IMG/VR virus record: IMGVR_UViG_3300045988_163070
Direction: 5' to 3' (one strand)
DNA length: 64,000 nucleotides
Source: a virus
Positions 24,646 through 59,200 of this stretch are shown here, one piece after another (positions within the stretch are counted from its first letter, which is position 1; every line of letters begins with the position of its first letter). The notes beneath the pieces were generated by a model. It searched no databases. It was given only the letters and a program-made list of their open reading frames with translations, and was not told the DNA's origin. Both the position numbers and the translations under genes were made by a program.

Positions 24646-24661
24646 AATAATACATTAATTG

Positions 24662-24744
24662 TGGACGGTAGAGGAATCGAACCCCTCCCACTCGTTTTGA
24701 ATTGGTTGCGCAACACGAAGCTCTAACCGATAAGCTAACCGTCC
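24662..24744 (-). tRNA. tRNA-like gene with a 17-nt anticodon loop (identity undetermined)
   Basis: Perfect 7-bp acceptor GGACGGT/ACCGTCC. D-arm GCTT-ATCGGTTA-GAGC. T-arm AGGGG-TTCGATT-CCTCT. 5-nt variable loop. Anticodon stem TCGTG/AACGA encloses TTGCGCAACCAATTCAA. Confidence 0.6.
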
Positions 24745-25086: not shown

Positions 25087-25218
25087 TGCCAAGAGACGGA
25101 TTCGAACCGCCGACCTCTGCTTGTGGTGCTCTCCCGTTGAGCTAAGAGTATTTCTTGAGAGACTCGAACTCCCAACCTTCCACCACACACAGCGCTCTAT
25201 CCACTGAGCTATCCAAGC
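25087..25218 (-). ncRNA. 132-nt double tRNA-like RNA (outer tRNA frame plus nested permuted T-arm/D-arm module)
   Basis: Outer: GCTTGGA...TCTTGGC acceptor (4 WC, 2 GU, 1 mismatch), D-arm GCTC-AGTGGATA-GAGC, T-arm GGCGG-TTCGAAT-CCGTC. An 11-12 bp helix replaces the anticodon arm. Inner: GGGAG-TTCGAGT-CTCTC and GCTC-AACGGGA-GAGC. Confidence 0.5.
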
Positions 25219-29426: not shown

Positions 29427-29652
29427 AATTCTTAGATATTCATGCAGAGTGCGCCCACAGCCGTTATAAAGCTGAAACCGATTTTACGATTTACACTCTA
29501 CATGAATAGATTATAACATTATTGGGCATCGCAAATATATGAATTTCCAATAACTATGAACTATTTTTTACTTAAAATATACTTTCTCCATTTATTTTCT
29601 TTCTGTATTAATTTGACGATTTACGCAATTCACAAAATTTTCATTTAACTTG

Positions 29653-29727
29653 AAGTGATGGGCGGACTCGAACCGCCGACCTCATGCATATTAAGACATG
29701 CGCTCTAACCAACTGAGCTACACCACC
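29653..29727 (-). tRNA. tRNA with Ile-like body and an 8-nt anticodon loop CUUAAUAU
   Basis: GGTGGTG TA GCTC AGTTGGTTA GAGC G CATGT CTTAATAT GCATG AGGTC GGCGG TTCGAGT CCGCC CATCACT T. All arms are in register except for one extra loop nucleotide. Confidence 0.7.
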
Positions 29728-36043: not shown

Positions 36044-36534
36044 GGCTTTACAACTACATTACGTAAAAAGTTACTAAATTCACTCCTCACATCAAAACAA
36101 GGACACGCTTTGATATATTCAAGCGGTTCTACCTCTCCACTACCATCGAGATCAGGTGATGTATCCCGGTGCCCTAACAATTCAATGATAGGATACTCCT
36201 TACAGAGTTTTGCTACAAGATCACACAATGCGTTTTTTTGTGCATCCGTACGGGTGTCCTTTGCCTTTCCGTTCGCATCAAGTCCACCGATGTAGCAGAT
36301 ACCGACACTGTGTTTATTATAACTAATACCGGAAAACCCTTTCGTGTTACAATGTGCTCCGTCAATGGATAATGACCGACCGTTTTCTACGGTACCATCT
36401 AAATCTATCACGAAGTTATAACCAATCTGGCTGAACCCTCTTTGTTTGTGCATCAGGTCAATATCCTTTGCACGTATGTCCTGTCCGGCTTTCGTTGCCG
36501 AACAATGGATGATAATTGAATCAATTGTTTTCAT
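36040..36534 (-). CDS. N-acetylmuramoyl-L-alanine amidase endolysin (Amidase_2/PGRP)
   Basis: 164 aa. IIIHCSAT...IGYNFVIDLDGTVENGR...GAHC...HSVGICYIGG...LLGHRD. Confidence 0.85.
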   Translation of the reverse strand: MKTIDSIIIHCSATKAGQDIRAKDIDLMHKQRGFSQIGYNFVIDLDGTVENGRSLSIDGAHCNTKGFSGISYNKHSVGICYIGGLDANGKAKDTRTDAQKNALCDLVAKLCKEYPIIELLGHRDTSPDLDGSGEVEPLEYIKACPCFDVRSEFSNFLRNVVVKP

Positions 36535-37046
36535 ATCTTTTCCTCCTTGTCTAATTCTCCTTCAATTCTGTCGATAATACTCTGCACATGTGCAGGTGTA
36601 GCTCGCTTAAATTCAAAACGTATCACATGATAGATGATACGGAATCCTTTGTTTTTAGGATATGCAATAATCAGATTTTTGAACGCATTCTGAAGATACA
36701 CATAAGAGAACACATACGTTATAGTCTTGATTACCAATAATGAGTTCTCACCGTCTCCTATTAAGGTCATAAAGGAGAAAATCACCTCAATGATTATAAG
36801 ATAGAGAACAAGTTCGACCAAGGCATTTTTAAACTTACCCCATTTGAAGTTTTTACAACGTATAATCGAAACACCATCAGCTCTCATTCCACACCAAATA
36901 TTGAATCCAAACATTATAATCAAAGCTATAAGGAAACCTTTAGTCGGTGTTAAATAAGCAAGAAGAGAGCTGAACATCGAAACGAAAATAATTCGTATCT
37001 GGTCTACATTAAATAGCTCATATAACCATTTCATAATATTAATCAT
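36531..37046 (-). CDS. holin
   Basis: 171 aa with 3-4 TM helices. Located directly upstream of and overlapping the endolysin. Confidence 0.65.
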   Translation of the reverse strand: MINIMKWLYELFNVDQIRIIFVSMFSSLLAYLTPTKGFLIALIIMFGFNIWCGMRADGVSIIRCKNFKWGKFKNALVELVLYLIIIEVIFSFMTLIGDGENSLLVIKTITYVFSYVYLQNAFKNLIIAYPKNKGFRIIYHVIRFEFKRATPAHVQSIIDRIEGELDKEEKI

Positions 37047-37339
37047 AAAGTTAAAGCTATCAATATTGAAAACACAGTAATCAGTCCTGGCAATAAGACA
37101 GTAGCTAATGCGTCAAGCCAGTCAAAGGCAAATCCACACTTCTTCTGAATGTACTCAACAATGATCGCAGCAATGGCAGTTGTCGTTAAAGAGACAATAG
37201 CAGATTTGCAGAAATCAATGTTTAATAGAAGAAAACAGAAGGCAAGCATCACAACAAAAACGAATACTCCAGCTTTTACATGTGCTGGCCGGTTAGACTG
37301 TAAAATCCAATCATACAATACTTTTATACTCATACTCAA
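37043..37339 (-). CDS. small membrane protein (second holin/antiholin candidate)
   Basis: 98 aa with 3 TM helices. Overlaps the holin start. Confidence 0.5.
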   Translation of the reverse strand: MSMSIKVLYDWILQSNRPAHVKAGVFVFVVMLAFCFLLLNIDFCKSAIVSLTTTAIAAIIVEYIQKKCGFAFDWLDALATVLLPGLITVFSILIALTL

Positions 37340-37541
37340 AGCGTTTAATTATTAATAAAATATTCTGTATGAGACAAATGTATTGAGTATAGTAACCGGT
37401 TTGCCAAAAGTGAAAAATCTTGGAAAGTCATTTCCTTTTAATAAGCTATTTATTAACGACTTACAAAACGGACTAATTTTATAGGAAATAAAAAAGGTAG
37501 TCGAAAACCGGCTACCTTACATCTATCTATTAAGAAGAGAC

Positions 37542-38024
37542 TTATTGATATAAACTTAGATCAACAGCATCTTTCTTTTTCCAACCAGCAGCTAATGTGC
37601 GCTGAACAAAAACCATTTCCTTAGTATAAAAGTCCGTCAGATTTTCCAAGGTATTAAATTCATAGTAGACAGGTTCATCATCTGTTCCAAATTTAAATCT
37701 TACTGGTAAAGAGGTACCGTCTGTCTGCACTGCAAGATCATAGGCTGATTTATAATTGAACTGGTTTTCCTGTGATAACCATACAGGTATGCCATTATAG
37801 GTAAATCCGGACATGATCTCGTTATTTATCTCCTGATTATACCAGTTAATAACCATAACCTTTACCTCCTCACTGGTAGGCTTATAAGAGAACTCCTCTT
37901 CCATATAGGAAGCATTTCCCTCTTGCTCACTTGGCTGTACATCCCAACGTACACGCCACTTATTTTTCACCGGATTTACACACTCAAAGAGCGATACACC
38001 GGAACTTCCTTCTACTCGTTTCAT
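37542..38024 (-). CDS. hypothetical protein (DUF4376-like), translationally coupled to the RT
   Basis: 160 aa. Its ATG overlaps the RT stop (TAATG). GIPVWLSQENQFNYKSAYDLA resembles fibre-associated DUF4376, from memory only. Confidence 0.5.
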   Translation of the reverse strand: MKRVEGSSGVSLFECVNPVKNKWRVRWDVQPSEQEGNASYMEEEFSYKPTSEEVKVMVINWYNQEINNEIMSGFTYNGIPVWLSQENQFNYKSAYDLAVQTDGTSLPVRFKFGTDDEPVYYEFNTLENLTDFYTKEMVFVQRTLAAGWKKKDAVDLSLYQ

Positions 38025-39340
38025 TAGCTAAATACATATTTTGTTCGACCTTTACCGAACGTCTCCGTCTTAATCGTTGTTTCAAACGGAAAACCATCCG
38101 GCATACTTGAAATTTGTTGGAGGATATTTTTCATTTCCTCCGAATTGGTGAAGAACTTCTTCATTTCACCATTTTGCTCAATTGAGACAATACAACGGTC
38201 TTCTCCCTGCTCTGTTTTAATACCCATTTCATAATCTTTCACTATGATAGGGAGATTTACCAATTCTCTTATGGAAACAACTGTGCCTGGAAAACGCTTC
38301 TTCCCGTCTTCCGGCTTGTAAGTGACGTTTAAATCTTTGAAACTTTTCATTTTTATGCCTGTTAATTTATAAAATAGATTCTTGCAATCGGCATGCTTTA
38401 CCAAGCCATAAAAAGAGGCAATGAGTTCTTTACGACGTCTACGGCTTTTCACTTTATGAAGCCTACGAGCAAAGTTCTGTTTGTTCCTTTTGCGTACACG
38501 GGTATGATCCGGATAAATAACGAAGCCTAAGAAATCAATACCTTGCTTGGTTGGAAATACACGTTCAATCTTTTTAATCACAAGATTTATCTTAGCCACC
38601 TGCAGACACACAATATTACGCATCTTCCAAAGAACTTTTTTGCTCCCATTCAAAACACGCCCGTCGTCACAATACCGGAAATAGTGCTTCACGCCTTCCC
38701 GGTCCTTCAGGACATGGTCGATAAAAATGGATAACAGAAGATTACCAAGCCCCTGCGAACTTCTTAATCCTATGCTTATTCCCTTTTGCATCACGTCCAC
38801 GAATCCGGAAAGTAGCTGAATGAGCTTATTATCCTTAAACACCTTATTAACACAGTATTTCATAAAATCATGATCAACATTCTCATAAAATTTACGAATA
38901 TCAAAAGTGTAACAGAACTCTGTTCCTTGTGCATCATTCCCTATCGAATCACGTACATAACATAATAGATCGTGTGTACCACGTCCTTTTATAGATGCAG
39001 ATGTAGTCCGGATAAAACGACCTCGCAAATGTTCATCTACAACTTTCATAATTGCATGCACAGCAACCCGTTCTTTCAAAGAAAAAATTTGGATGCGACG
39101 TAGTTTACCACCTTCAAAGACCTCCTTTTCAAAAAAATTACTAACTTTAAAACTGCCATTACGAATCCTTTCTGTCAATTCGTCAATGACTTCTTTTTTA
39201 TGCGCAATAAGAGTTCTCCCTGAACGGCTGCGTTTACGTTTCCGACCTCGCAACACTGTCCAGAAAGACTCTTCCATATTTTCAGGAGTTATTATCTCCT
39301 CAATGATATTGCCTTCTCTACGCATAATTTTTGCCTTCAA
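38024..39340 (-). CDS. DGR-type reverse transcriptase
   Basis: 438 aa. RT motifs FDIRKFYENVDH, SIGLRSSQGLGN (the IGxxxSQ hallmark of DGR RTs), RYCDDGRV (YxDD), GIDFLGF. TR lies 206 nt upstream. Confidence 0.88.
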   Translation of the reverse strand: MKAKIMRREGNIIEEIITPENMEESFWTVLRGRKRKRSRSGRTLIAHKKEVIDELTERIRNGSFKVSNFFEKEVFEGGKLRRIQIFSLKERVAVHAIMKVVDEHLRGRFIRTTSASIKGRGTHDLLCYVRDSIGNDAQGTEFCYTFDIRKFYENVDHDFMKYCVNKVFKDNKLIQLLSGFVDVMQKGISIGLRSSQGLGNLLLSIFIDHVLKDREGVKHYFRYCDDGRVLNGSKKVLWKMRNIVCLQVAKINLVIKKIERVFPTKQGIDFLGFVIYPDHTRVRKRNKQNFARRLHKVKSRRRRKELIASFYGLVKHADCKNLFYKLTGIKMKSFKDLNVTYKPEDGKKRFPGTVVSIRELVNLPIIVKDYEMGIKTEQGEDRCIVSIEQNGEMKKFFTNSEEMKNILQQISSMPDGFPFETTIKTETFGKGRTKYVFS

Positions 39341-39545
39341 CTTTCTGGGCCCAACTTCTTCGAGAATCCCAATAAAGGGAAACCTACCAAACTCTACCCA
39401 ACGATGTATGTTTCAGTTTTCCAGTCTTGCGACTGCTGTTACTGAGGCTCATCCCCCTCGGCTCAATGATGAGTAACTCGTACTCCTTATCGTACGCCGA
39501 TTAATTTCTTCAGGCACTAACGTCCAAATTCGTTTAAATTGTTTC

Positions 39546-39656
39546 CGAGCCGGGAACCGTTGTTCGCAGACGCATTCGATGAATCGTTACCGCAATTCGC
39601 ATACGAGACACCGCCGTTCGGGTTCGCGTTGTTGTTCGACCGAAAGACCACACGAG
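39546..39656 (-). repeat. DGR template repeat (TR)
   Basis: 111 bp matching 39898-40008 at 105/111 positions. Read in gene sense it is AAC-codon-rich. Confidence 0.88.
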
Positions 39657-39829
39657 TCTATGGGGGAATCCACCTACGGGGGTACAAAATTAACAATTTA
39701 TTCATCTTGACAAAAGATTAAGTAAGTTATATTTTCGCCGGGCTTCGCCCGGATTTGTGCCGTTCGGGAAGAGCAGCACAAATCCGAACATGGCTAAACG
39801 TTTTCCGATTTAGTCGCTTCGCTCCCGCT

Positions 39830-42800
39830 TTACGATTCCGATTTCAACGATTTGTACGCTTCAACGCTCTCCGCGACCTCGATTTGACCGCGGAAGGCGA
39901 GCCGGGAACCGTAGTTCGCAGACGCATTCGATGAATCGTAACCGCAATTCGGATACGAGACACCGCCGGGCGGGTTCGCGTTGCTGTTCGACCGAAAGAC
40001 CACACGAGAAGCTGCTGCGCTCGGTTGGAATTCATCACAATAATAGGTTGTACTACTACCAGCCTGTGAAAAAGCAGCAATCACATCACAATATTTTTGA
40101 TGAACCATACCAGTTGCAAAACCACCGGTTGTACCGGAACGAACTTTACGTACCGTACCGTCAGGCATCTCAATATTTAACTTATACTGCTCTTGTGCAT
40201 TAGTATTAGGTAAACCAACTTTATCCATCCATTCATATTTGTCACCATACCAACTTTCATAACCCATACAGTTACTTGAAGGAATACGAGTATGAACTAT
40301 TCTACCATCGGCATCCTTTGAGATATACCAAGAATATTCAGTTTTATGCACACCATCTGAATCATAGCTTACAGTATCCTGCATACCGATTACGGCAGTA
40401 GTTCCGACTATCCGGTTATTTGTATTTTGACCATAACCGCATTGATCTTGTGCATCACGACGACCATATGCTGCATAGAACAAGTTAGCTACATCTTTGT
40501 GCATCTCCCAGTCCACAAGTTGCAAATTACGTTGTTGTGCATAATAGTGAAAATCGGATTGAGACATACTACCAACACTTGCAGAAGTATTAAAAGCAGA
40601 ATAAAGAGAATTACCAATAGAGATTGCTTCACCGACACCTGTCAGACAAGGCAGGTGTTCAACCCAATCCGGCTCCATATCCTCAATCTTGTCACTGTTG
40701 GATAATACAACAAGGTCAAATTCTGCGTTATTGAAGATCGTGAAATAAAGGAAAGCAGCTCTTTCCGGAACGTCTGCAATAAGATACATTCCTTCAGCAA
40801 ACTTATTGTTAAGACTCGGAACGGTCAAATCCTTTATAACATTACCGGATGCGTCTACGAAGATACTGCCAATCAAGCCGGTTCCTAACGTGGTCGGGAA
40901 ACGGACACGCTTATGCTTGGAAACATCGACACCGCAAACACTATAATTCGTGTCTGAAGAATAGCTGTCCGTCAAGGTAGCACGACCAATCAGAATCTTA
41001 GATTTCTCCTTATAAAGCCCGGATTCCCGGATATTGGAAAGATAAACTTTATCACATACCGGTATATCCGGAATTTCGGTATTGGAACTGTAACAGGTGT
41101 ACTTCTTGTTGTTAAGGTAGTCATTAATTCCTTTATACCAATAGTGAGGTTCATACATCCAAAGATCACCCTCCGTACTATCCAATTTGGCAGGAGTAGC
41201 ACCGGATATTTTCTCTGAATCGGCATAATAATTAGAGTTCTCATCGTGTAGATTGCAAATCACCATTTTACCTTTCTCAGTCTGCTTACCTAAAACACGA
41301 TGACGTTTAGCCAGGATCTTAGTAATATGTCCGTTGGCTACATAGCTGTTACCGTATTTATAGCCGGTCAGATTGTCGAGGTTGCTGATATTAGCATCAT
41401 CGGCAACAGTGTCATCAAACTCAATCATCGTATATTTAGGCTGAATGATGGTCAGCTCCGGGAAATGAGCAACGGCTGCTTCATATTCTTCATCAGTCAT
41501 GGAACGGGTAAGACGATAGGTTCCCACCAGGCGACAGGAAGATACATTACCGCCATTCTCATCAACACCTCCCATTTCCATAAGGTTTCTAATCAGCGTA
41601 CCGTCTCCTTCCATATCAATACCAGTAATACGAAGGTATCTGACAGCCGGACACGCTGTGAGCAGTCTTTGCCAGTCGATCAGTGCGCAACTATCGACAA
41701 CAAGGCGATTAGTATTAACCGTACCCTCTAATGTCAGATTGTCGTTAGATAATTTGTTCAAGTATCGTAATTCAAGCGTCTGAAGAGTAGCAGGAAGAAC
41801 AGCAACGGACAAGGGAGAACCAGGTGCAAAAGATACTCCCGTTAATGCAGATTTACCAGCACGGAAAGTCTCAAGTTTGGAATTTGAAGATAAATCCATA
41901 GAAGTAAAGTTTTCACTTTGCAACCCGGTAAGGTTCAACTCACGCAGATTCTTACACTTGTCAACTAAAAGTGCGTTCATGGTCTTTTGCGTAGCCGAAC
42001 AACTGATATTCAAAACTCGCAATGCTACGCAATTGCTTAGATTTAGAGTACCGACAATAGCATGGCTAACATTAGTCAGATCAAGACCTAACATACGGGA
42101 TGCACCGTAGAAGTATTGAGGATCATTGACTATCAAATCCGTGTCGAGCGTCAGTTCGACAATACTGCCGGCATCTTCAGCGAGCACACCACTTTGTTTC
42201 GGTTCGCCGGACGTGTACCCATAGCCGAAGTAATAACGTTCGCTGGCGGTTATCTTAACCTTACGCTTATCAGTAGAGAACTTATAACCAAAATAGATAG
42301 GGAATGAATCCTGTCGGTATGTACCTGCAAGATATTGGCTATCCAAAAGAGCAAAACGGTTTTGGATCGTGAATGTACGGTGAGCGTAACGACTACCTTG
42401 AAGGGCGTACAGGTAGTCATAGTATTTTGTACCCTCCGAAGTCGTAACACCCTCTGTTAAAGGCTTGATATACTTGTATTCTCCGTCCTTATTATAAATC
42501 CTCTCGCACCAATTACCCATCAGTTGGTTATTGAAGATATCAAGTACATACTCGGTGCTCATATTACTACGGATATTCCCGGCAACTTCCTGCAATTTCT
42601 CCGGCCAAGAGCGGACAAGTTTCCAAAGTATGGAGTCGTGACCGGCCATTGCATAGGAGCCAATAGAATCATCAAAGGTTTCCCATGTCATAGTATAGTC
42701 ATACTTCAGTACGGAGTCATTACGTCCGCCTAAAATCGTATCCATGTCATAAGGAAGAATATACCAGTGAACACCGTCCCAAGTGCAGAACATCATGTTC

Positions 42801-45800
42801 TTTGCCCGGCTGTCAACAGCCATCAAATAGTCAGTGATTATGTACCAACCGAACAAGCTGTTTACATTAAAGTAATCGGCACATTCTGCACGGAACCGGG
42901 CGGGGTCATTTTTTACCGAATTAATCCATGTCCAAAGGCGGGTTACAGCGTCTTTATCCTCTTGGTCGGCATCTTCCCATGTCTTATCCGGCTTAAAACG
43001 GAATTCCAAACCGTCAGCGAAGTTTTCAGCAGTTATGTTGGAAGTACCGAAGAGGCACAACGGATGAGAATTGTTCAAGAACTCAAGGCAGATACATTTG
43101 TTACGGTCGCCATTCAAAGCGGCTAAATCATTGAATCCGGCAATACCTTCAAAACCGTAGACATTGTGAGAATCGCTCTTTTCGTTATTGAAATTGTACT
43201 TACCCAAATAGGTATTTACACCGGTATTATCATTATCGTAGAACAAGTCCATCGGAAAACCATCAACACCGATACGAACACTGCCGTCTATTTCCTGTGG
43301 GGGTGTCAGCCAGCCACATTTCTTCCATGTGTCATTGACCAGTCTCACACCACCAGTATTGTGCGTTGATGATGAGTCGGAGAAATCAGCCTTCAAACAG
43401 AAAATACCCACACGTTTGGCGCCGGGTTTGAATGAATACATCAAGTCCGGAACATCGACACCATTCACTTCCAAAGTCGTTCCATATTTATCGAAACGTT
43501 CAAAGTAGATACGGTAGTTCTTTCGCGGATAGGTAGTAGACGATGTACCCTGTATCCGAAGTCCTGCATTACGAAGTACAAAATCATACTCCTTGCCATA
43601 TGCAGAATAGAAATACACGTCAACAGGCACTTCAAACTTTTTGTTGTTCGTTGCATTAACAAGTTCGACATCACCAACAAAGCGCATGACAGATTTACCT
43701 TGTACACGAAGCTTTTCTATATCCACATCCGAGCCGTCGTCATTCATAACATCGTTTTTCTGGAATAGAACAACCATTTCCTCTGATGTCGGACGGTCTA
43801 CCATGTAGTTGGTCAGCTCTTCATCATCAGTCAGACCACGCCGGTAGATACGCAAATTGCGCAACTCGATATCGGCTGCATCGGAAGATACAGTAATATT
43901 TACCGGAGCTTCCTGCTTCATACTTTCAGTCTGTGAGTACTGTTTCGCACCACAACGGATACCATTTACGTACAATTCTATCAAACGAGTACCGGACTTC
44001 TTGCCGATAACGAAAGCTATTTTCAGATTCAGATCGGAAGCAAAAAGTGTATTGACAGAACTTCCTCCGGAAGCGGTTATTTTCGCTTCCTGTGTTGTCA
44101 TCTGGAATCCTATTCCACCGGACATACACGAAAGAATGACACCGTTACGATCAGTTACATTCGAACACTTCAATTCAAATTCATACGTAGCACCGTTCGA
44201 TACGGCATCATTGGCAAGGGGTTGTTTAAGAATCTCTATTGTAGCTCCATTAGTTAACTGCAAAGAGTCACCAGTCCAACCATTACTATTCCAATCAAAC
44301 CCGGTAAACTTGGTTGTTACCTCGCCATCAGTCCAAACTGCCGGATTTTCTTCGGTGTTACTACGACCGGCAGCCGAAAGTTTTAAATCAAGGTCTGCTT
44401 GTACTTCCTCGATATCAATAGAGGATTTTGCAACGTGGACTAAGAAATCATATTCAGTGTTGCCGCAAGAGAACCGCATTGCATACTCTCCCTGCTCGGT
44501 GAACCGGTTTGTATATACCTGAACGGTACGCGGCACACTTACTGTCTGTGTTTTGGTGCCATTGTTGTACACGGACATTTCAGCAGGGGTTTTGCTCGGA
44601 TCGTAAACAACAAAATCGAATTGCAGTTTCTCATATTGACCGACTTCAAGGCGTGGTGTCAAATGATCATCCGTAAAGATGCGGCCGTCCGGGAAGCGAT
44701 GCATCATGCCGATACTGGGAGCAGAAGAACCCTCTTTGAATATATCCAAGTAGATACTTTCAGAGCGAACGGTAAGATCGGCAGAAGCTTCCATTTCAGC
44801 AACCATCTGCACGGTATGCCGACCAGGTAAAAGGTCAGACATGGAAATACTGAAGCTGCTGTTCGTTTGCCCGGATTTAGTAATAGTCTTGGAGTCTTTC
44901 TGAACACCATCAACATACAACATGACAACTTTGTTGCCTGTTCCCGAAATGGTGAACGGAATGGATGCAGTTGCACCGGCTGCATAGCCGCCAACAGGAG
45001 AAGCAATGTTATAAGTAGAACTCAAAGATAACGTAATAACTTTGACGGACGTGTATGCCTGTTTAGTCTGCTTCTTGCCTTCCGGATCGGTAGTTGTTGC
45101 CTTTACATAGATATCCGTTGTTCCCAAAAGCAAATACTTACTCAAATCAAGGGTATATGTACCCTTAGATACATCGTTAATAGTCTCTGTGTACACAGTT
45201 TGAGCACCTCGAAGCATCTGTATGGTAAGCGTAGCTTTCTGCCCAGTAGATTCGCCCTTGTCATCTCCGGAACTATATTGGTGATCGTAGAAATAGGTAA
45301 GATGAGAAGAACCACCCTCTTTGATAATGCTGTTATCTACCGAAGCATTGAGGACAATCTTTGTTGCAGTACCGGTTTCTCCGCCGCCACCGCCTGTACC
45401 GCCTTGAAATTCCGTACTGGCTATTTCTGCACCGGACTTGTTTTTCAAACTTAGCTTAACAGTATTATTATCCTCGTCAACCTCGGATTCGAGTGTGAAA
45501 ACAGTATTGGCTTCAATCTCATTAAATTTAGCAGTTACAGGAGCGTTCTGAATGGCATTTGTTGAGTTGGCATCCAAACTTTCATCTGTTTGAGGAATTT
45601 CGACATTGAAAGATACACCACCACTTTCATCCGGAGTATGCTTTTCACCGTTGAAAGTAATTTCTTTCACAGCTCCTGCACCACCGTATTCATTCCAAGC
45701 AGCCGGCTGATCGAAAGCTGTTATGTCGTTTGATTCAAAACGATAATCTTTCCATTTCCCAGCAGACTCCTCGAAAGTAATAATCATGCCGGGCTTCTCT

Positions 45801-47395
45801 TCATCCTTGACTTTAGCTCCAGAAACGGCTGTTACTGCTGTTTCTTTTGTATAGAAGCCAGTATTTAAAGGATGAAGTTTAGTTACGTTATAAAAGCCAC
45901 TACCTGAACCGGAACCACCGGAGATTTCTTCCCACTCACTCCACTTCTCACCTGTCATCTTACGTTGTTTCAACACACCACCGGTATAATACGTAGACAG
46001 GAAGATTTGGGTAATGGCATCATCCTCACCGTACCGGGACACAACTAAAATATCACTTGAATAAGTGTCTGCATCAGCCACAATATAATAGCCGGAGTTA
46101 ACAACAGAATCAATATCAGTATAAAGGACTGTATTGAAAAAATGAAGCATATCTATATTTGACAGATTCTTGTAGAAATCCTCTTCAGTACCCTTATACC
46201 CTTTGCCTTTTGCATCTTCATAGGTATTAACCTCATTCCATGAGTCCGGTACATAATCACTGCCGACATATACATAAGTATGATATTTACCTACTTTATC
46301 TAAGAATGAACATTTGATACCAATGTTCCTTAGCTCAATAGGAACAAGGTATATAGCCTTATCTAATGTGAATCTGTTTGTATTATCACTCGGATCGACA
46401 TGATATAAAGATACATTATAGTCAGTAACGCTCGTTATTCTCCAACTACCCCACTCTCCGTTTTTTCGCTGTCTCTGATATACGAACCCACACTCATAGC
46501 GTATTTGTTCATAAATGTTCTCATCAAGTATCGTAGTAGCCAAAAGACCTTTTATATCCTTGAATTCATTTCGTTCATCTTCATTATACCGATAAGTAAA
46601 CAAGCCGGCAGTACCAAACACCTCATCTAAATCTCTTAGATCGTTCAAGAAATCCAAGTCTATAACAATACTACCACAAACATTTATGGCTGCCAATAGT
46701 TTTTTCAATTCTCCCCAAACAGAGCCATCATCACTTTTAGATGTCTCTTTTGTTCCAAGAGCTTCCTGTAATTTAGCTTCGGTTGACATCCATTTCCCCC
46801 AAGTTGTGTTACCACTGGAAACAACACCACTCCGGGACAAAGTAATAACCGGTCCTACGGTTACTTCAGTAGCCGTACTGTTATTCATTGCATCAAGTTG
46901 GATGCACGATGTAAACGACTGATAAACATTATTGAGTCCCAACCGCTCTACTTGAATATTGAGAGGAATACTGGTAGAACCAGGCGCAAATACACAACGG
47001 TAATTTCCAACAGAGGAATTACCTTCATATAAAGAATTGAGTTTTGATTTTAAGTTAGCCAGTGAATCAATCGTACCCAAACTTTTAAAAGGATCAGTAA
47101 GAGGATTTGATTTTGTTGAAGTGCCTAATATCCTTTTCAACAGTTCAGCATCTCCTTCAGTTATACTCTTCTCTGCATCTGTAATACGATTCTTAAAATC
47201 CTCCAAATCTTTATTAATATAAGCGGATATAGCGTCAGTTAAATCCTGTACCAATATTTTCCGCCCACCACTAATCTCAACATACATATCATCAGACAAA
47301 GATTTCACGGCAGTAAGCTGCTCTATCGTGAAACTATTTGTCTTTAACGCTTGCAGCACAAGGCTGACAATCTGCTGTTTCTCCGTTTCTGTCAT
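39830..47395 (-). CDS. giant tail fibre / receptor-binding protein, DGR target (LamG-like, CotH-like, LRR, C-terminal CLec-type VR)
   Basis: 2521 aa. LamG-like (IELYVNGIRCG...LRNLRIYRRGLTDDE). CotH-like (DYLMAVDSRAKNMMFCTWDGVHWYILPYDMDTILGG). LRRs (LDLTNV..LNLSNC..LRVLNIS..LRELNLTGL). C-terminus RVVFRSNSNANPPGGVSYPNCGYDSSNASANYGSRLAFRG overlaps VR. Confidence 0.85.
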   Translation of the reverse strand: MTETEKQQIVSLVLQALKTNSFTIEQLTAVKSLSDDMYVEISGGRKILVQDLTDAISAYINKDLEDFKNRITDAEKSITEGDAELLKRILGTSTKSNPLTDPFKSLGTIDSLANLKSKLNSLYEGNSSVGNYRCVFAPGSTSIPLNIQVERLGLNNVYQSFTSCIQLDAMNNSTATEVTVGPVITLSRSGVVSSGNTTWGKWMSTEAKLQEALGTKETSKSDDGSVWGELKKLLAAINVCGSIVIDLDFLNDLRDLDEVFGTAGLFTYRYNEDERNEFKDIKGLLATTILDENIYEQIRYECGFVYQRQRKNGEWGSWRITSVTDYNVSLYHVDPSDNTNRFTLDKAIYLVPIELRNIGIKCSFLDKVGKYHTYVYVGSDYVPDSWNEVNTYEDAKGKGYKGTEEDFYKNLSNIDMLHFFNTVLYTDIDSVVNSGYYIVADADTYSSDILVVSRYGEDDAITQIFLSTYYTGGVLKQRKMTGEKWSEWEEISGGSGSGSGFYNVTKLHPLNTGFYTKETAVTAVSGAKVKDEEKPGMIITFEESAGKWKDYRFESNDITAFDQPAAWNEYGGAGAVKEITFNGEKHTPDESGGVSFNVEIPQTDESLDANSTNAIQNAPVTAKFNEIEANTVFTLESEVDEDNNTVKLSLKNKSGAEIASTEFQGGTGGGGGETGTATKIVLNASVDNSIIKEGGSSHLTYFYDHQYSSGDDKGESTGQKATLTIQMLRGAQTVYTETINDVSKGTYTLDLSKYLLLGTTDIYVKATTTDPEGKKQTKQAYTSVKVITLSLSSTYNIASPVGGYAAGATASIPFTISGTGNKVVMLYVDGVQKDSKTITKSGQTNSSFSISMSDLLPGRHTVQMVAEMEASADLTVRSESIYLDIFKEGSSAPSIGMMHRFPDGRIFTDDHLTPRLEVGQYEKLQFDFVVYDPSKTPAEMSVYNNGTKTQTVSVPRTVQVYTNRFTEQGEYAMRFSCGNTEYDFLVHVAKSSIDIEEVQADLDLKLSAAGRSNTEENPAVWTDGEVTTKFTGFDWNSNGWTGDSLQLTNGATIEILKQPLANDAVSNGATYEFELKCSNVTDRNGVILSCMSGGIGFQMTTQEAKITASGGSSVNTLFASDLNLKIAFVIGKKSGTRLIELYVNGIRCGAKQYSQTESMKQEAPVNITVSSDAADIELRNLRIYRRGLTDDEELTNYMVDRPTSEEMVVLFQKNDVMNDDGSDVDIEKLRVQGKSVMRFVGDVELVNATNNKKFEVPVDVYFYSAYGKEYDFVLRNAGLRIQGTSSTTYPRKNYRIYFERFDKYGTTLEVNGVDVPDLMYSFKPGAKRVGIFCLKADFSDSSSTHNTGGVRLVNDTWKKCGWLTPPQEIDGSVRIGVDGFPMDLFYDNDNTGVNTYLGKYNFNNEKSDSHNVYGFEGIAGFNDLAALNGDRNKCICLEFLNNSHPLCLFGTSNITAENFADGLEFRFKPDKTWEDADQEDKDAVTRLWTWINSVKNDPARFRAECADYFNVNSLFGWYIITDYLMAVDSRAKNMMFCTWDGVHWYILPYDMDTILGGRNDSVLKYDYTMTWETFDDSIGSYAMAGHDSILWKLVRSWPEKLQEVAGNIRSNMSTEYVLDIFNNQLMGNWCERIYNKDGEYKYIKPLTEGVTTSEGTKYYDYLYALQGSRYAHRTFTIQNRFALLDSQYLAGTYRQDSFPIYFGYKFSTDKRKVKITASERYYFGYGYTSGEPKQSGVLAEDAGSIVELTLDTDLIVNDPQYFYGASRMLGLDLTNVSHAIVGTLNLSNCVALRVLNISCSATQKTMNALLVDKCKNLRELNLTGLQSENFTSMDLSSNSKLETFRAGKSALTGVSFAPGSPLSVAVLPATLQTLELRYLNKLSNDNLTLEGTVNTNRLVVDSCALIDWQRLLTACPAVRYLRITGIDMEGDGTLIRNLMEMGGVDENGGNVSSCRLVGTYRLTRSMTDEEYEAAVAHFPELTIIQPKYTMIEFDDTVADDANISNLDNLTGYKYGNSYVANGHITKILAKRHRVLGKQTEKGKMVICNLHDENSNYYADSEKISGATPAKLDSTEGDLWMYEPHYWYKGINDYLNNKKYTCYSSNTEIPDIPVCDKVYLSNIRESGLYKEKSKILIGRATLTDSYSSDTNYSVCGVDVSKHKRVRFPTTLGTGLIGSIFVDASGNVIKDLTVPSLNNKFAEGMYLIADVPERAAFLYFTIFNNAEFDLVVLSNSDKIEDMEPDWVEHLPCLTGVGEAISIGNSLYSAFNTSASVGSMSQSDFHYYAQQRNLQLVDWEMHKDVANLFYAAYGRRDAQDQCGYGQNTNNRIVGTTAVIGMQDTVSYDSDGVHKTEYSWYISKDADGRIVHTRIPSSNCMGYESWYGDKYEWMDKVGLPNTNAQEQYKLNIEMPDGTVRKVRSGTTGGFATGMVHQKYCDVIAAFSQAGSSTTYYCDEFQPSAAASRVVFRSNSNANPPGGVSYPNCGYDSSNASANYGSRLAFRGQIEVAESVEAYKSLKSES
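39898..40008 (-). repeat. DGR variable repeat (VR) inside the 3' end of the fibre gene
   Basis: Differs from TR at 6 positions. Five of these are adenines in TR (gene sense): AAC to AGC, AAC to CCC (2 nt), AAC to TAC twice. The sixth is G to C. Confidence 0.88.
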
Positions 47396-47417
47396 AATTA
47401 TTCTTTTAATGAATTAT

Positions 47418-47855
47418 CTAATCATTATCATATACCCACGTTAACTCAATGGTCATACCAATATTATCAATATCATAGTCATACATGTAATCAAGATAAA
47501 GCTGGAATTCTTTTCCGGTACCTACATCTCCGGCATCTACTCCCTTTAAAATATAGACTCCATCTCTACTAACTACACTACCCTCAATAAGATTACTATA
47601 TGGACCACCTGTGTATAGAATGGCACGTAAATTTATCAAACTGTCATCCAAAGAACTTTTCAAGCTATCAAGTCCGGTTATCACCAGTTTACCATAACCT
47701 TTCCTGCCAATATACTTACTGTCTATGTCAGTAGTCTTAATGGTGATTAAATCCCAATATGATTGTTCATCACCGCCCGGATGATGAATACTGTTCACTG
47801 TGATCATTGTATCACTGTTGATAGAAGTGCCAGTATTTGGAGTAGCATTAGACAT
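47418..47855 (-). CDS. virion structural protein (fibre/baseplate region)
   Basis: 145-aa ORF between baseplate-region genes and the fibre gene. The call is positional only. Confidence 0.45.
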   Translation of the reverse strand: MSNATPNTGTSINSDTMITVNSIHHPGGDEQSYWDLITIKTTDIDSKYIGRKGYGKLVITGLDSLKSSLDDSLINLRAILYTGGPYSNLIEGSVVSRDGVYILKGVDAGDVGTGKEFQLYLDYMYDYDIDNIGMTIELTWVYDND

Positions 47856-47878
47856 ATTGATATAAGTTCCAATTTCTG

Positions 47879-48733
47879 CTACAGGTTTTCTGTACCAAAT
47901 TTGATACTACGCATATCCCCAGTATCCGTTTTTCTGTAATTATCACCTTGTACACGTCTCATCGCAACCTGATTATTCCATTCCAAAACAGGATCAAGCG
48001 ATTTTATCTGCTGTAACTGCTGATTGAAGACAAAGCTTTTCAATCCCTCGATTTCTTGATTCAATTCAGGAACACCACCGTCTTTTCTTGCATAACGTAC
48101 ACCATCAAAATAGATATAGTTACAGCATAGAATACGGTTAAGAAAGTCAGCAAACCACACTGGGCAACCAATAGAATTACCTAAAGTAAATATCTTCTGT
48201 GTAGCTTCACGGCTATACAATTCTACGATATCACCATCAGCAGTGGTAAACTGTTCGTTATCTACTGTGAATGACCAGTTATTATCTTTGAATCCACCGG
48301 GGGCACGGAAATCGAAGAAATATTGCATACCATCAATCCAAAAGATACAATCCGTCCGTTGTCGGTTATCTTTCATTGAATACTGTATTACAGTAGTCTC
48401 ATTAAGTTCGGCACTATCATTCGTAACTTTGAATATCTCACTCCAGGAATCACCAATTAACACATCGTAGTAACCGCTATTCAGCCCTGTAATAATGTGA
48501 AAGTAGATTATCTGATTATTATTCATATTCCATGTGTGCCACTCAATAGAATCCTGACGTTCATTAATTAAATCTCGTACAACCAAGGCAGGCACTGCAT
48601 CTGATTTGTCACCTATCAACTCAATGAATATGATATCAGAGCTTGCAAATTTCTGAATGTATTTACTCTTCGCACCGAACCGGTCCGTAGTAGGGTTAAA
48701 AAACAAAGGGGTAAAAGGACTTATTTTCAACAT
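47879..48733 (-). CDS. baseplate/tail-tip protein (positional)
   Basis: 284-aa ORF in the tail-tip gene string. Confidence 0.45.
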   Translation of the reverse strand: MLKISPFTPLFFNPTTDRFGAKSKYIQKFASSDIIFIELIGDKSDAVPALVVRDLINERQDSIEWHTWNMNNNQIIYFHIITGLNSGYYDVLIGDSWSEIFKVTNDSAELNETTVIQYSMKDNRQRTDCIFWIDGMQYFFDFRAPGGFKDNNWSFTVDNEQFTTADGDIVELYSREATQKIFTLGNSIGCPVWFADFLNRILCCNYIYFDGVRYARKDGGVPELNQEIEGLKSFVFNQQLQQIKSLDPVLEWNNQVAMRRVQGDNYRKTDTGDMRSIKFGTENL

Positions 48734-48739
48734 AATATT

Positions 48740-50647
48740 TTAAGCTTTAGAGATAGATTTCACTATAAGTTCATATTTAAGCCCGTCAAACCGTTCTATT
48801 TGTCCGTCTGCTTCACTCAAAAATCCCTTATACAAATACTCATCTTTAACAAGAGTAATTATACCATCCACAGGAGAAGGAATAACTTCATCATAGGTAT
48901 TAAATCCAACTTTACCACAAGTGGCCAACTTTTCAGATATCACAAAATTATCTTTTAACGCAATGTTGTTAATCACAACATCACTGTTGCCATCAGAAGA
49001 AGTAAATTCAAGCTTATCAGCGCTAATACCAATATACTTGCTGTTTGCAAGCAACATAGCACGCTGGTTATACATCACATTAAACATCTTATCCGGATTC
49101 AACACGCCGCTGATATTCCATCCGGTTCTAATGAGTTTATAGCACATCACCCCAGACGTTAATATAGAATCAGCAGCTCCAACAAAAAACACGTCATTAT
49201 CACTTTCATTATCAGTAGTATTCTTACCTCTCTTTTGTGCTAAGAACTCAATACCATAGGCATCTGCACGATAAGGACTAATAAGCTCCAGTTTATTATC
49301 AGTAATATCTACGCCAGTCATGTATTCTGTCGTAAACCGGAATTCATCACGTCCGTTAATGGAATCATAATCCTGTTTGTCATAGCCGACACGAACAGAC
49401 GAATAAATCAGCTTCTCATCAACAGAATAAGTAAATTCAGTATGGTCGACTTCAAATTCTTTGATTATACTTGTGGAAAACAGTGTATCTCTGTGAACGA
49501 ACTGAACAATATTTCCATCAATTACAGGAACAAAGCCGAACACAGATTCCATCCAGTCAACAAACTTTGTATAAGAAGTATATAACTTCGCATCTGGTAT
49601 GCCACGAATACTTTCAGCAGCTACTATAACACAATTATCAAGTCTGGAATCATAATTGCTTGCAATCTTACCGGTAATGCCTTCTTTTCCTCCATTGATA
49701 CTTTTAAGCAAACAATTCAATACCCTTGTAGGTGTTATTGCATCAATGTAGATAGGATCACTGATAGAATTATAAGTTACCTTAAACTCTTTAATCTTCT
49801 TAATGTTGATTTTTGCATAAGTAGTATGAGAAGCTTTCAAACTGATAGAAAAATACACCATCTTTCTTTGACCATAAGAATCAAATGAAGCCTTACTCAC
49901 GCTAATGCTCAATATTATTGTTTTAGTTTCTCCTTTACTGATATTCACTGCTTGAGTATTCCCACAAGAGGAAAGAGTGAATGTTGCATATTCAGCATCC
50001 CCGCTATTCTCATATTCAACATCCATTTCCACATAAGCCTTAATGCCCGATGCCGGGACACCGAGCAGATCAGCAACTACGCCTTTTTCTCCTTTGTCAT
50101 ATTCAAGATAGCCTCCTTTGGATATCTCATTACTATAACTGGAAACATAGACATCTGCAAGTTCAATGGGGTTTACGGTATATGTATCACCAATAGAGAA
50201 GTTTAGTATATTTTGCATATCTAGCCTATCATAATATAGCTGATGCACTGCCTTTATTTCATCTACAAGATACTCGTATTGTGTTCCCTTGTTAGCCTTA
50301 ATAAGAGTAGCAGTACTATTATCAACCGTATTCATTGATATCGTATAGCCCGAATTATCGAAGGTACCGAAATCCAGTTTACTATTGATAACAATATCAT
50401 AGGTGTGCTGATTATTGATTTCGTAAATTGCGATCCGAGCGTCTGCAAACAGATATTTTTCTACCCATTCATCGAGAAGCAACTCATAAGCTTCTCCTAC
50501 AAACTCAAACTTAGATGTGAATGTTCTAATAACTCCACCGAATCCATCACGTTTGAGTGTACGTTTTATCTCATCCCAATTCCGGATACAAGATTTAGGA
50601 AGTTCATGCGTGGTACCAGCTACTGTAAGAACATATTTGCAAAGCAT
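48740..50647 (-). CDS. baseplate/tail-tip protein (positional)
   Basis: 635-aa ORF. First structural gene after the moron block. Confidence 0.45.
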   Translation of the reverse strand: MLCKYVLTVAGTTHELPKSCIRNWDEIKRTLKRDGFGGVIRTFTSKFEFVGEAYELLLDEWVEKYLFADARIAIYEINNQHTYDIVINSKLDFGTFDNSGYTISMNTVDNSTATLIKANKGTQYEYLVDEIKAVHQLYYDRLDMQNILNFSIGDTYTVNPIELADVYVSSYSNEISKGGYLEYDKGEKGVVADLLGVPASGIKAYVEMDVEYENSGDAEYATFTLSSCGNTQAVNISKGETKTIILSISVSKASFDSYGQRKMVYFSISLKASHTTYAKINIKKIKEFKVTYNSISDPIYIDAITPTRVLNCLLKSINGGKEGITGKIASNYDSRLDNCVIVAAESIRGIPDAKLYTSYTKFVDWMESVFGFVPVIDGNIVQFVHRDTLFSTSIIKEFEVDHTEFTYSVDEKLIYSSVRVGYDKQDYDSINGRDEFRFTTEYMTGVDITDNKLELISPYRADAYGIEFLAQKRGKNTTDNESDNDVFFVGAADSILTSGVMCYKLIRTGWNISGVLNPDKMFNVMYNQRAMLLANSKYIGISADKLEFTSSDGNSDVVINNIALKDNFVISEKLATCGKVGFNTYDEVIPSPVDGIITLVKDEYLYKGFLSEADGQIERFDGLKYELIVKSISKA

Positions 50648-55663: not shown

Positions 55664-56242
55664 TTACGTCCTTTTCTTCTTCATGCTTATCTCTACATCT
55701 GCCTGATGGACGATGTTTGCATAAACAGCAGCATTTATGTTCCGGACATCAATATTCATTTTAAAAAAAGTCATAAGAAAAGCTATTTCAGCATCAAAAG
55801 AAGAACGTATCTGTTCCGGAGTAGCTTTTTCTTTCTTCTCATCAGAACGCATATCATCGCTTCTCTTTTGCTCAAATAAAGCAGATCGCAACAATTCTTC
55901 AACTTTAGACTTAACTTGTTCATCAGACATGGATTTCGTATCATATGATAACAAAGCCAAAGTCTCCCGGACATCTTCATAAGCATCAATAGCAATCAGA
56001 GAAATACAAACTTTAAAAAGCAAAACACGTGCCCTCTCTTTTATCATATCCTCACGATCAACTAACACAGATTTCAATCCGGACGGATTAGTTATCTTCT
56101 TGTACTCTATTATCAAATCAGATGAACGTTTCTTTAATTCCATCTCATTAATATCCTCATCTGGTGAAAGTAATACGGAGCAATCACCACATGAAAGCTC
56201 TATAAAATCATATAGAGATAATTGGTTCAATCTTTCAATCAT
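55664..56242 (-). CDS. hypothetical protein downstream of tape measure
   Basis: 192-aa ORF. Its start overlaps the TMP stop by 4 nt. Confidence 0.5.
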   Translation of the reverse strand: MIERLNQLSLYDFIELSCGDCSVLLSPDEDINEMELKKRSSDLIIEYKKITNPSGLKSVLVDREDMIKERARVLLFKVCISLIAIDAYEDVRETLALLSYDTKSMSDEQVKSKVEELLRSALFEQKRSDDMRSDEKKEKATPEQIRSSFDAEIAFLMTFFKMNIDVRNINAAVYANIVHQADVEISMKKKRT

Positions 56243-59200
56243 AACCGGGAAAGCATATAATATTTATAATCACGGGCACACGCATCTTTATGTTGCTGCT
56301 TACCAATACTGCGTAGTTCATGACGTAAGCCCTTTATTTCATATTTCAAATCACTATAATCATTGAAAATAATAGGTTCACCAGTAGTATCCACTCCTAC
56401 AAAGGTGGGAGAAAGAGAGGGAACATCCCATTCCGGAACATCCCAATCAGGCAAATCAATAGAGCTCACATCCGGAAATACCTGTGCACCTTTAGGAAGA
56501 TCCACAAGTGTAGGAGTATCGGGTGTCACCCATGCTTTACCGGCATACATGACAACCTCATGTTTACCAGCATCACCCACGAGCGCCTTACCGCCCGGAT
56601 GAGCACCGTCTTTCGTTCCTTCAGCATAAGAAGGAATCGGTGTAGCGAGAATAGTTGCCACTTGAATAGCTCCCAATGCTCCTATCAAGATTGATAACGG
56701 GATATTGGGCAACGCTTCAGTAATAGCAAGTGCAGTCGCTATTCCAGCCTGGGCAATACTCGTTGCTTTCTCCCATACAGCTTGTTTATGAGCAATCTCT
56801 TGCTTTTTCTTTTCAAGCTCCTCATTCTTGGCTTCAGTAGCAGCTTTTGCAGAACGTTTACGGGCTTCGGCTTCCTCTTCCGATATGGCACCTTGTTCAG
56901 CCTGCTTTTCATAACGTTCTACATCTTTTTCATACTTCTCATCGTTTGCATCCTGTTCTTCCTCTATTCGGTCAATCTGACCGTCATAAACAGTACTGAC
57001 AAGACTACCGATTGCACCGACAGCTTGAGATGCAGTCTGCAACCATTTTTTGAGATTCTTTTGACGTTCTTTCTGCGCTTTTTCATCTGCCTTGGTAACA
57101 CTATTGATAGCAGCAATCTCTGCTTCTGCTTCCTCTTCGGCAAGATCAGCCTTTAATTTCTGCAACTGTTCGGCAATCTTAGCCCTATCATCCGCACTAA
57201 GGTTATCAGCTTGAAGTTCCAATTCTAAGGCATCAATAGCGGCTTCGGTAGTCTTTCGAGCATAATCAAGCCGTAACCGGTATTCCTCTGCCGCATATTC
57301 CTGCTGTGTAATTTGCTTAGAAGCCAGTTTCTTTTTCAACGCAAGCATATCCATGATGTGTTCTTCATCACGAATCTTTTGCTCATGAGATGCATTTTCA
57401 GCGATCAATGAAATTTGATCGGAAGCATACTTCTCATACAACTCCTTTTTCTTCTTTGCATACTTTTCAGCAATGAGGAACACATCTTCACCAGTTTTCT
57501 CTGCTGCATCAATTTCACTCTCACGTTGAAGTTCCAACTGTTGAAGTTTTAAATCCAATTCCTCTTTAGAACCTTTTCTAACAACAGTAAGGGCGTTTTC
57601 AATATCCTTCTTTTCACGATCTGAATTATACTTGATGGAATATTCATCAAGAGCACGCTGCATCTCTTTAGCAAGATTCTTCCGGGTTGCAATCTCTTCC
57701 CTACTATATCCCTTAACAGCAGCTATCTTCTTTGAATACTCAATACCAATACGGGCAAGTTCTTTCTCTAATCCCTCATCCATAAGGGAAAGTTCTGATT
57801 CTTGGTAAGTCTGTTGGATTTTCAATTTCTCCTGTGCAGCTTTCTCCAATTCGCGTTTTTCCTTATCAGTGAGAGGTTTTTTGAAAGTACTTTCTGTATT
57901 TTCATTCTTTGGATTAAATTTTTCTGCAATTTTATCAAGTCCAGCATTAAATTCATCACTCGAATATATCCTAAAGAAATTTTTAGAAAACTCTAATTGC
58001 GCCCTATCAGCTTTTTGAGCTTCTTTTGTATATACTCCAAACATCTTAGCACCTGCATTTTTAAACCATGACATATTTTCAAATTCTGATGTAGAGTACA
58101 GGGCACCAGTTTTCATTCTTTCTAAAGCCTTACGTTCTTGAGCTGTCACTTCAATTCGTTTATTCTTCATTTGAATAACAGCTTTGGTATATGCTTCTTC
58201 CTCTGAATCGCCTGCATCAAGAAGTCTCTTATACTCACTTTGAAACTCTTTTTCAGCTTCCAATATTTTATTATTTGCATCCTTTTGTGCAAGTCCTCTA
58301 AAGTTTGTTTCTATTTGAGTTATTTTATCTTCGGGAGATTTTAAATCATTAGCTATGCTTCTAATCTTATCGGCCATCCAATTAAGAAACTCTTTTGCAG
58401 GACCTGTTGATTCAGAAAATGAGAGCATGAATGCTTCCCATGCAGACGAAAGATTAGCCAAAGCTCCCTGAACATTATCTCCCATTGTGTGTGCCATATT
58501 AGCAAGCTCTCCATCTACACCAGTTATTTGATCACGTAATGGAACAATCTTATCAGCGGCAGTAAGGAAAGCGTTGAAAGCTGCTACACTCCGTTTATCC
58601 GTCATTTCAAGAGTAGTATTCAAATCTACTCCCTGCTCTTTCAACTTCTGTAAACCAATAACCAATTCAGGCAATGTCTTTACAGGACCTCCCAGTGATT
58701 TTGCAAGTACACCATTAGTATCAGCTAAATTTAATAGAATATTACGTGTAGCGGTAGCAGACATAGAAGCATCAAAGCCAGCATCTGCAAGTTTTCCAAC
58801 CAATGCTAAAGTATCCTCTATGGTAAAATTGAAAGCTTTAGCAACCGGGCCTACGATAGGTAATGCAGTAGCAAGGTATGAAAAAGATAAAGCGCTTTTC
58901 GAGGTTGCAACTGCCATAGCAGAAACATAGCGTTCAGTTTCTTTGGTATCTGCATTAAACATTCTCAAAGCTGCACCTGATAAAGCGGCAGCATCTGATA
59001 ATTCAGCACCAGTCGCTTGAGCAAATTTGAGTACAGCTTCTGTTGATTCTAAAATTTCTTTTCTAGTAAATCCTAATTTTGCTAACTCTATTTGTAATTC
59101 AGTAGCTTCCGAAGCAGTATATTTAGTAGTAGCTCCCAAACGTTGAGCATCAGAAGTTAATTCTTTTATTTTATTTGAAGTAGTACCTAATATAGCTGCA

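Follow-up and report, generated by a model that had tools for sequence, protein, structure and literature searches.

An Avd-less, hankyphage-type diversity-generating retroelement on a tailed phage, with an RT-3 RNA and a long-range helix predicted around its template

The diversity-generating retroelement (DGR) of Bordetella phage BPP-1 couples a template repeat (TR), along with a reverse transcriptase (RT), to the mutagenesis of a variable repeat (VR) in a target gene, with the help of the accessory protein Avd. Avd occurs in about 74% of DGRs and is thus not strictly defining, and Wu et al. (2018) described an avd-less Lineage 3a; its CH1 protein, of 160–169 aa and with a pI of 4.7 ± 0.2, was found only in this lineage, that is, in Bacteroides and relatives. 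The DGR of hankyphage (Bacteroides phage p00, BK010646) has been shown experimentally to be active in culture (PMC12135933). On the RNA side, the main text of Weinberg et al. (2017) placed the motif RT-3 near RT genes, tied only RT-10 to a DGR and merely speculated that other RT motifs act in DGRs. Here we describe the DGR carried on the minus strand of a 64,000-nucleotide stretch of viral DNA (IMG/VR record IMGVR_UViG_3300045988_163070; the whole stretch is hereafter called the window). We consider it very probable that this is a functional DGR of the hankyphage type (Lineage 3a / Architecture E1, i.e. target-TR-RT-CH1 with no Avd) on a tailed phage of 64 kb or more. For a phage of gut Bacteroidales such a DGR is nothing unusual; it belongs to an already described and classified Avd-less Bacteroidales lineage, and the window adds a phage backbone to the lineage known from hankyphage. 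New here are the assignment of the orphan Rfam motif RT-3 to Lineage 3a and a covariation-supported helix predicted around the template.

The repeats and genes of the element are as follows.

39546–39656, minus strand: template repeat (TR), non-coding, with 23 adenines; 110–111 of its 111 positions are identical in 10 related genomes
39898–40008, minus strand: variable repeat (VR), encoding aa ~2463–2499 of the target and ending 22 codons before the stop
39830–47395, minus strand: target gene, an open reading frame (ORF) of 2521 aa, tail-fibre-like, matching phrog_14959 at 3414 bits
38351–39325, minus strand: RT core (aa 1–325), Pfam RVT_1, with its probable start at ATG 39325
38024–38350, minus strand: RT C-terminal domain (aa 326–433 plus the stop codon), matching phrog_19665
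37542–38024, minus strand: CH1-type accessory gene (DUF4376), 160 aa, pI 4.64, whose ATG shares one base with the RT stop (TAATG)

The original prediction, which had been made from the sequence alone and placed the element at 38024–40008, correctly recognized a DGR, its strand and the TR/VR assignment, and its RT, TR and VR stand. It left out the rest of the target (to 47395) and the CH1/DUF4376 gene (37542–38024) and, within its own extent, missed the RT-3 RNA (39346–39502), the 5' RNA element (39662–39675) with its helix, and the C-terminal domain of the RT (~108 aa). That the class would not be new, as had also been said, is borne out by the presence of hankyphage-type cassettes in four deposited Bacteroides phages: hankyphage, BT-TP2, BS-TP4 and BKO1-TP3 have the same order of a giant target with a C-terminal VR, TR, RT-3, an RT with the C-terminal domain, and a DUF4376/CH1 gene after the RT.

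Compared with its hankyphage counterparts, the RT has 68% identity over the full length, and the target has 46% over a stretch of more than 1800 aa. Adenine-only TR/VR mismatches, the absence of an Avd homologue and a long-range helix with compensatory changes are common to this locus and the hankyphage type. The differences are that hankyphage is a 43-kb Mu-like transposable phage whereas the window spans at least 64 kb, that the TR has 111 nt here and 116–117 nt in the hankyphage type (about 73% identical), and that neither this locus nor other relatives have kept the 64-aa ORF annotated in the VR–TR interval of hankyphage. The likeness to Lineage 3a / E1 of Wu et al. (2018), an assignment set by description, lies in the lack of avd, HRDC and MSL, the 160-aa CH1 with a pI of 4.64 after the RT, a single adjacent target, few non-A substitutions, and relatives in Bacteroides and related genera. 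Where that study gave no motif for CH1 or the RT C-terminal extensions and no RNA structure, we find a weak DUF4376 match, RT-3 and the helix. With BPP-1 the element shares mutagenesis that is specific to adenines and acts on a C-terminal VR of a tail-fibre protein, a TR with 23 adenines, and an RT whose catalytic and template-contacting residues are the same; unlike BPP-1 it has no Avd and no supported hairpin after the VR, has in addition the ~108-aa RT C-terminal domain and the CH1 gene, and carries the RNA family RT-3 instead of RT-10.

The TR and VR form a single direct repeat of 111 nt, whose copies lie 352 nt apart and agree at 105 of 111 positions (95%), and no third copy was found within the window. 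Read from TR to VR in the gene sense, the changes are A>G at 39632, AA>CC at 39618–39617, A>T at 39588 and A>T at 39561, so that the five altered adenines all fall within AAC codons (AAC to AGC, CCC, TAC and TAC), while the sixth change, G>C at TR 39600 / VR 39952, lies off the adenine rule at repeat position 57 (G57C). For the window alone, the probability that five of six mismatches fall on adenines is p = 0.0014 (hypergeometric). The repeat search reproduced every coordinate and count that had been reported for the pair and its six differences, and the adenines, given earlier as about 23, number exactly 23. The homology is bounded by CTCGTG on the 5' side and by GGTTCCCGGCTCG on the 3' side, beyond which the flanks are unrelated; its end had been placed at the right coordinates, and the string quoted for it was one base too short. 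GGTTCCCGGCTCG is a GC-rich 3' end of 13 nt that contains no adenine and is present in both TR and VR, and the 5' end of the repeat likewise has 20 nt without adenine. Of the TR adenines, 22 of 23 occupy codon position 1 or 2 of the VR frame (8 AAC and 2 AAT codons), and adenine mutagenesis of the TR cannot create a stop codon. The theoretical repertoire reaches about 9e12 protein variants, through 13 codons in a C-terminal stretch of ~36 residues.

To place this pattern among its relatives, we used 17 loci with a close RT from IMG/VR, together with three further VR alleles from JGI/ENA metagenome contigs; mismatches were tallied over the window and 16 loci with a TR/VR pair of their own, hankyphage, BT-TP2 and BS-TP4 included. 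At these loci 131 of 133 TR/VR mismatches lie at TR adenines, the only two exceptions being G57C in the window and G38C in locus L186, which adjoins two mutated adenines. Ten genomes have a TR identical to that of the window at 110–111 of 111 positions and, with the window, they provide 11 VRs, all of them distinct. The VR differences among genomes with this shared TR fall almost exclusively at TR-adenine positions, 19 of the 23 adenines varying among the first eight genomes, and the flanking DNA is near-identical in the closest relatives (L002–L009). The number of substitutions per VR among these relatives ranges from 2 (L008) to 10. Position 57 is G in all ten other VRs that share this TR, as in the TR itself, and the G57C of the window is therefore either a private VR mutation or a sequence error. 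Since 11 genomes share essentially one TR and differ in VR, the DGR is, judging from these sequences, evidently active in its lineage; the apparent activity proposed in the original prediction is thus upheld, and VR polymorphism is almost exclusively at adenine positions on assembled contigs as it had been expected to be in a population.

The RT is 433 aa long, and the TR lies about 220 nt upstream of it. Its DGR-specific IGxxxSQ motif, already recognized earlier, reads IGLRSSQ (aa 185–191, 38753–38773), and the YxDD box reads YCDD (aa 218–221, 38663–38674) and is intact, with no inactivating change. The two motifs align with I181/G182/Q187 and D215/D216 of the Bordetella RT (bRT), which is also the best PDB sequence match of the protein (8ub7_A, E = 5.8e-19, aa 2–319), and the top Foldseek matches of the RT model are 8ubd and 8ub7. 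The C-terminal domain (aa 326–433) is without counterpart in bRT. It is 87–94% identical to most of the aligned relatives, those of the hankyphage type included (three rows are at 57–59%), as compared with about 70% for the whole RT. The domain is rare, occurring in 232 clusters among 1.84 billion representatives, either as the C-terminus of RTs of 430–500 aa or as stand-alone proteins of ~105 aa that begin at the invariant Met326. Its model is beta-rich with one helix and found no significant fold match in the PDB (best E ≥ 0.03); several OB-fold proteins were matched at a low probability that is too weak for a claim. In LoVEphage (L102, 3295–4838) the annotation divides the homologous RT into three separate ORFs, and this split, together with the stand-alone versions of the domain, suggests that genes of this RT family have fused or split, or that frameshifting occurs.

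The DUF4376 match of the ORF that follows the RT is weak (E = 1.3e-4) and does not reach the Pfam cut-off. None of the 46 window ORFs of 85–200 aa has a Pfam match to the Avd family, consistent with the avd-less Lineage 3a, and no conserved ORF lies between VR and TR. The 64-aa ORF of hankyphage was considered as an Avd candidate and rejected, as it is not kept as an ORF in five other lineages. In BS-TP4 (L020, 7956–8616) a RelE/XRE toxin-antitoxin pair sits between VR and TR, which are there spaced by 1012 nt, and the mismatches are still adenine-only.

The non-coding features around the template, taken in the direction of transcription from the VR towards the RT, are these.

39861–39892, minus strand: CCGCG-N13-CGCGG inverted repeat, after the VR and inside the coding tail of the target (…AFRGQIEVAE…)
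39737–39786, minus strand: two adjacent GC-rich stem-loops, terminator-like, downstream of the target stop (fold z = -3.3)
39685–39714, minus strand: Bacteroides-type promoter-like site, TTTG-N18-TAATTTTG, a pattern match that is one of 4 in the window
39662–39675, minus strand: 5' element of the DGR RNA, AGGUGG-A-UUCCCCC (AGGUGGAUUCCCCC), the 5' strand of the long-range helix, ending 5 nt before the TR
39503–39545, minus strand: linker of 43 nt from TR to RT-3, opening with an AAACAA motif that is conserved in the alignment
39346–39502, minus strand: RT-3 RNA (Rfam RF03068), filling the gap between TR and RT

RT-3 matches its Rfam model over the full length (positions 1–148 of 148) at 130.1 bits, compared with a gathering score of 40.5. 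All relatives tested, to an RT identity as low as 43%, have it in the interval from TR to RT. In the Rfam scan of the window, only RT-3 and tRNAs scored above threshold. Upstream of the TR, the second of the two stem-loops (CCGGGCGAAGCCCGG) is kept in relatives in the alignment, and the -7 box TAnnTTTG, part of the Bacteroides promoter consensus used for the pattern match, is aligned at the same place in at least 20 relatives. A TR transcript made from this promoter-like site would begin some 10 nt upstream of the 5' element.

A conserved AGGYGG lies just upstream of the TR, and the 7 nt after it are complementary to a G-rich stretch after stem 1 of RT-3, and in the window UCCCCC (39667–39662) can pair with GGGGGA (39457–39452). 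RNAalifold, run on the full-length alignment, returned this helix unprompted together with a 3-bp extension of GGU (39674–39672) with GCC (39448–39446). The helix brackets the TR together with the linker and RT-3 stem 1, and 5 nt separate its end from the TR boundary; one of its strands lies beyond the TR and outside the Rfam model. In the discovery set, which comprised about 100 loci and 19 distinct combinations, 95.5% of cells are paired, 4 of 7 pairs show double changes, slid registers reach at most 72% paired, and 0 of 500 shuffles reach the covariation score. A test set was then fetched from an independent genome collection once the structure was fixed; the strands of its 49 distinct sequences were located by nhmmer anchoring, and all sequences were kept. 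Here 91.8% of cells are paired, all 7 pairs show double changes, slid registers stay at or below 66.5%, and there are 71 compensatory cells as against 20 ± 7 in shuffles, 0 of 500 of which reach the covariation score. The predicted long-range helix around the template is therefore well supported by covariation. We liken it to the cPRT stop duplex of BPP-1, although it has 6–7 bp plus the 3-bp extension and the duplexes of the BPP-1 type average 13 bp; cPRT-stop-type duplexes have been reported in 207 of 278 surveyed DGRs with Avd homologues.

Two other candidate structures were rejected. A priming duplex between the TR 3' end (CGGCUC) and the P1 strand of RT-3 (GAGCCG) is seen in the window and is not kept in hankyphage. 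The inverted repeat after the VR, which had been noted as lying where target-recognition hairpins are usually found, does exist at that place, but it folds no more stably than shuffled versions do (z = -1.07 and -0.19 in the window), the folds of six lineages range from z = -1.3 to +0.5 without covariation, and its arms are disrupted without compensation in L015 and hankyphage, both of which are still mutagenized at adenines only. With chance-level folding, a lack of conservation and a position within coding sequence, it was discarded as a target-recognition element.

These elements suggest the following course of events. The Bacteroides-type promoter would give rise to a transcript of the 5' element, the 111-nt TR, the linker and the RT-3 RNA, and probably also the RT-CH1 frames. 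In this RNA, the 7 nt just upstream of the TR would pair, as the covariation indicates, with RT-3 next to its first stem and so close the TR in a loop. The RT, which has a bRT-like core and the lineage-specific C-terminal domain, would with no Avd bind the folded RNA and copy the TR into cDNA, placing random bases opposite adenines as the adenine-only mismatches and the homology to bRT imply. By analogy with the Bordetella cPRT stop duplex, cDNA synthesis probably stops at the long-range helix, and the cDNA would then replace the VR, the repeat ends that lack adenine serving as guides (20 nt on the 5' side and 13 nt, GC-rich, on the 3' side). More broadly, and as a tentative proposal by analogy to which we give a little less than an even chance, Lineage 3a DGRs may form an Avd-independent ribonucleoprotein in which RT-3 and the helix provide the scaffold, the helix acts as the cDNA stop, and the RT C-terminal domain, possibly together with CH1, replaces the RNA positioning by Avd. 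The window offers a clean exemplar of this avd-less lineage, and the helix makes an Avd-independent mechanism testable, as it points to concrete mutations for the Bacteroides thetaiotaomicron hankyphage or E. coli DGR systems. If true, targeted-mutagenesis tools would be another field of interest for a compact two-protein DGR that is free of Avd and has a defined RNA scaffold.

Several points weigh against the reading of the window as a functional DGR that works in this way on a tail fibre. Activity was judged from assembled contigs and not from reads, and the source population of the window lies outside that evidence. The window VR has only 5 of 23 possible substitutions and one non-adenine change, and the gene at 47418–48733 carries a 1-nt frameshift relative to relatives. 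The whole-RT model is of low confidence (pLDDT 58) and usable only for recovering bRT as the top fold match, and that of the C-terminal domain is moderate (pLDDT 57). A C-type lectin fold of the VR domain found no Pfam or PDB sequence match with the last 189–306 aa or with a six-homologue profile. Finally, the roles given to the long-range helix, the RT C-terminal domain and CH1 are ones that we infer.

The lectin question bears on what the DGR diversifies. The hankyphage homologue of the target was reported to carry a C-type lectin domain (Benler et al. 2018), and it is on the homology of the target to that protein (46% identical) that a putative domain of this kind in the VR region rests. 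VR variation most likely alters receptor or ligand binding, a function deduced from the position of the gene and the work on hankyphage. An alternative that we regard as unlikely, though it deserves to be weighed, is that the DGR is active and its diversified tip binds a non-receptor such as host mucus glycans, as was raised for the homologous hankyphage protein in the same study; no receptor is known, and the 2521-aa target is very large with many unassigned domains. The location of the gene argues for a tail fibre instead, as it is the last of the tail module, downstream of the tape measure (56239–60147) and upstream of lysis genes (amidase), and the 2025 hankyphage study treats the homologue as a tail fibre and links DGR activity to broad host range (PMC12135933); both arguments are circumstantial.

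With few VR substitutions, a non-adenine change and a frameshift, the window sequence could also contain errors or be a decaying copy. We think it highly improbable that the cassette in this genome was recently inactivated, or is decaying and no longer homes, in a lineage that is itself active. The 5 of 23 substituted adenines and the private G>C in the VR, like the 1-nt deletion at 47418–48733, are what such decay might leave, but five substitutions fall within the range of the same-TR relatives given above, L186 also has one non-A change, and the frames of RT, CH1 and target are intact, as are YCDD and IGxxxSQ. Moreover, relatives with different VRs have the same TR, RT-3 and helix. As for the deletion itself, two adjacent ORFs on the minus strand at 47418–48733, of 284 and 145 aa, jointly match one PHROG family of 438 aa (phrog_26568); direct alignment shows that the missing base lies in an A-run, where the window has GAAAA-CC and L006 has GAAAAGCC, and BLAST places a gap of at least 1 base in the same gene against six more relatives, four of them 98.6–99.8% identical. 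The deletion is either a frameshift mutation or a sequencing error.

A reading of the two repeats as an ordinary duplication or a gene-conversion tract, with an RT that comes from a retron, group II intron or Abi/DRT system, as the group II intron RTs and DRT9 among the weaker sequence and structure matches might suggest, is effectively refuted by the pattern across independent genomes (131/133 mismatches at adenines of the invariant copy), the Bordetella DGR RT being the best match in both sequence and fold and the Rfam scan having found no intron RNA domains and no retron msr/msd.

The functional hankyphage-type DGR that we thus favour sits on a phage backbone for which megablast found no useful match among 50,697 deposited phages, with the DGR region and two pieces of 24–25 kb as queries. 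With regard to the host, the representative genome set searched with the window RT contained no close RT, and the scan of genomes with the RT alignment returned only relatives of at most 75% identity. The 80 retained genome relatives of the RT (47–75% identity) bear mostly Bacteroidales names (Bacteroides, Phocaeicola, Parabacteroides, Prevotella), and about 12 are binned to other taxa. Beside the RT of L014, a relative at 92% identity, the flank contains the Bacteroides sRNA BTnc049 (Rfam RF04179, 106 bits; 16477–16585, minus strand), a hint that this contig has a Bacteroides host or a prophage setting.

Relatives also differ in how the parts of the cassette have been kept. Over window positions 36500–49700, the TR / RT-3 / RT / CH1 block is 97–100% identical to L006 and L183–L186, and the target gene only 87–90%, so that on sequence comparison conservation is much stronger in the retroelement core than in the gene diversified by it. 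Locus L003 (~157–285; IMG/VR 3300029214_000057) has an RT 100% identical to that of the window and a TR that carries an insertion of 9 nt besides about 15 differences, of which several lie outside adenines; here the TR allele has probably been swapped, presumably to fit another target. In six contigs, L006 (9670–9780), L018 (~9680), L080, L120, L133 and L154, the VR-spacer-TR segment is collapsed to a single repeat copy, and the target gene continues directly into the sequence downstream of the TR. In L018 the single copy resembles the VR at its 5' end and the TR at its 3' end. Such collapsed copies reflect either homologous recombination between VR and TR or an assembly chimera across the 111-nt repeat.

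Away from the DGR, Rfam identifies three tRNA-like genes on the minus strand of the window, at 24661–24744, 25087–25218 and 29652–29727. ARAGORN reports two of them as 'tRNA-???' with four-base anticodons (tgcg and taat), and the third, which is 132 nt long, may contain an intron.

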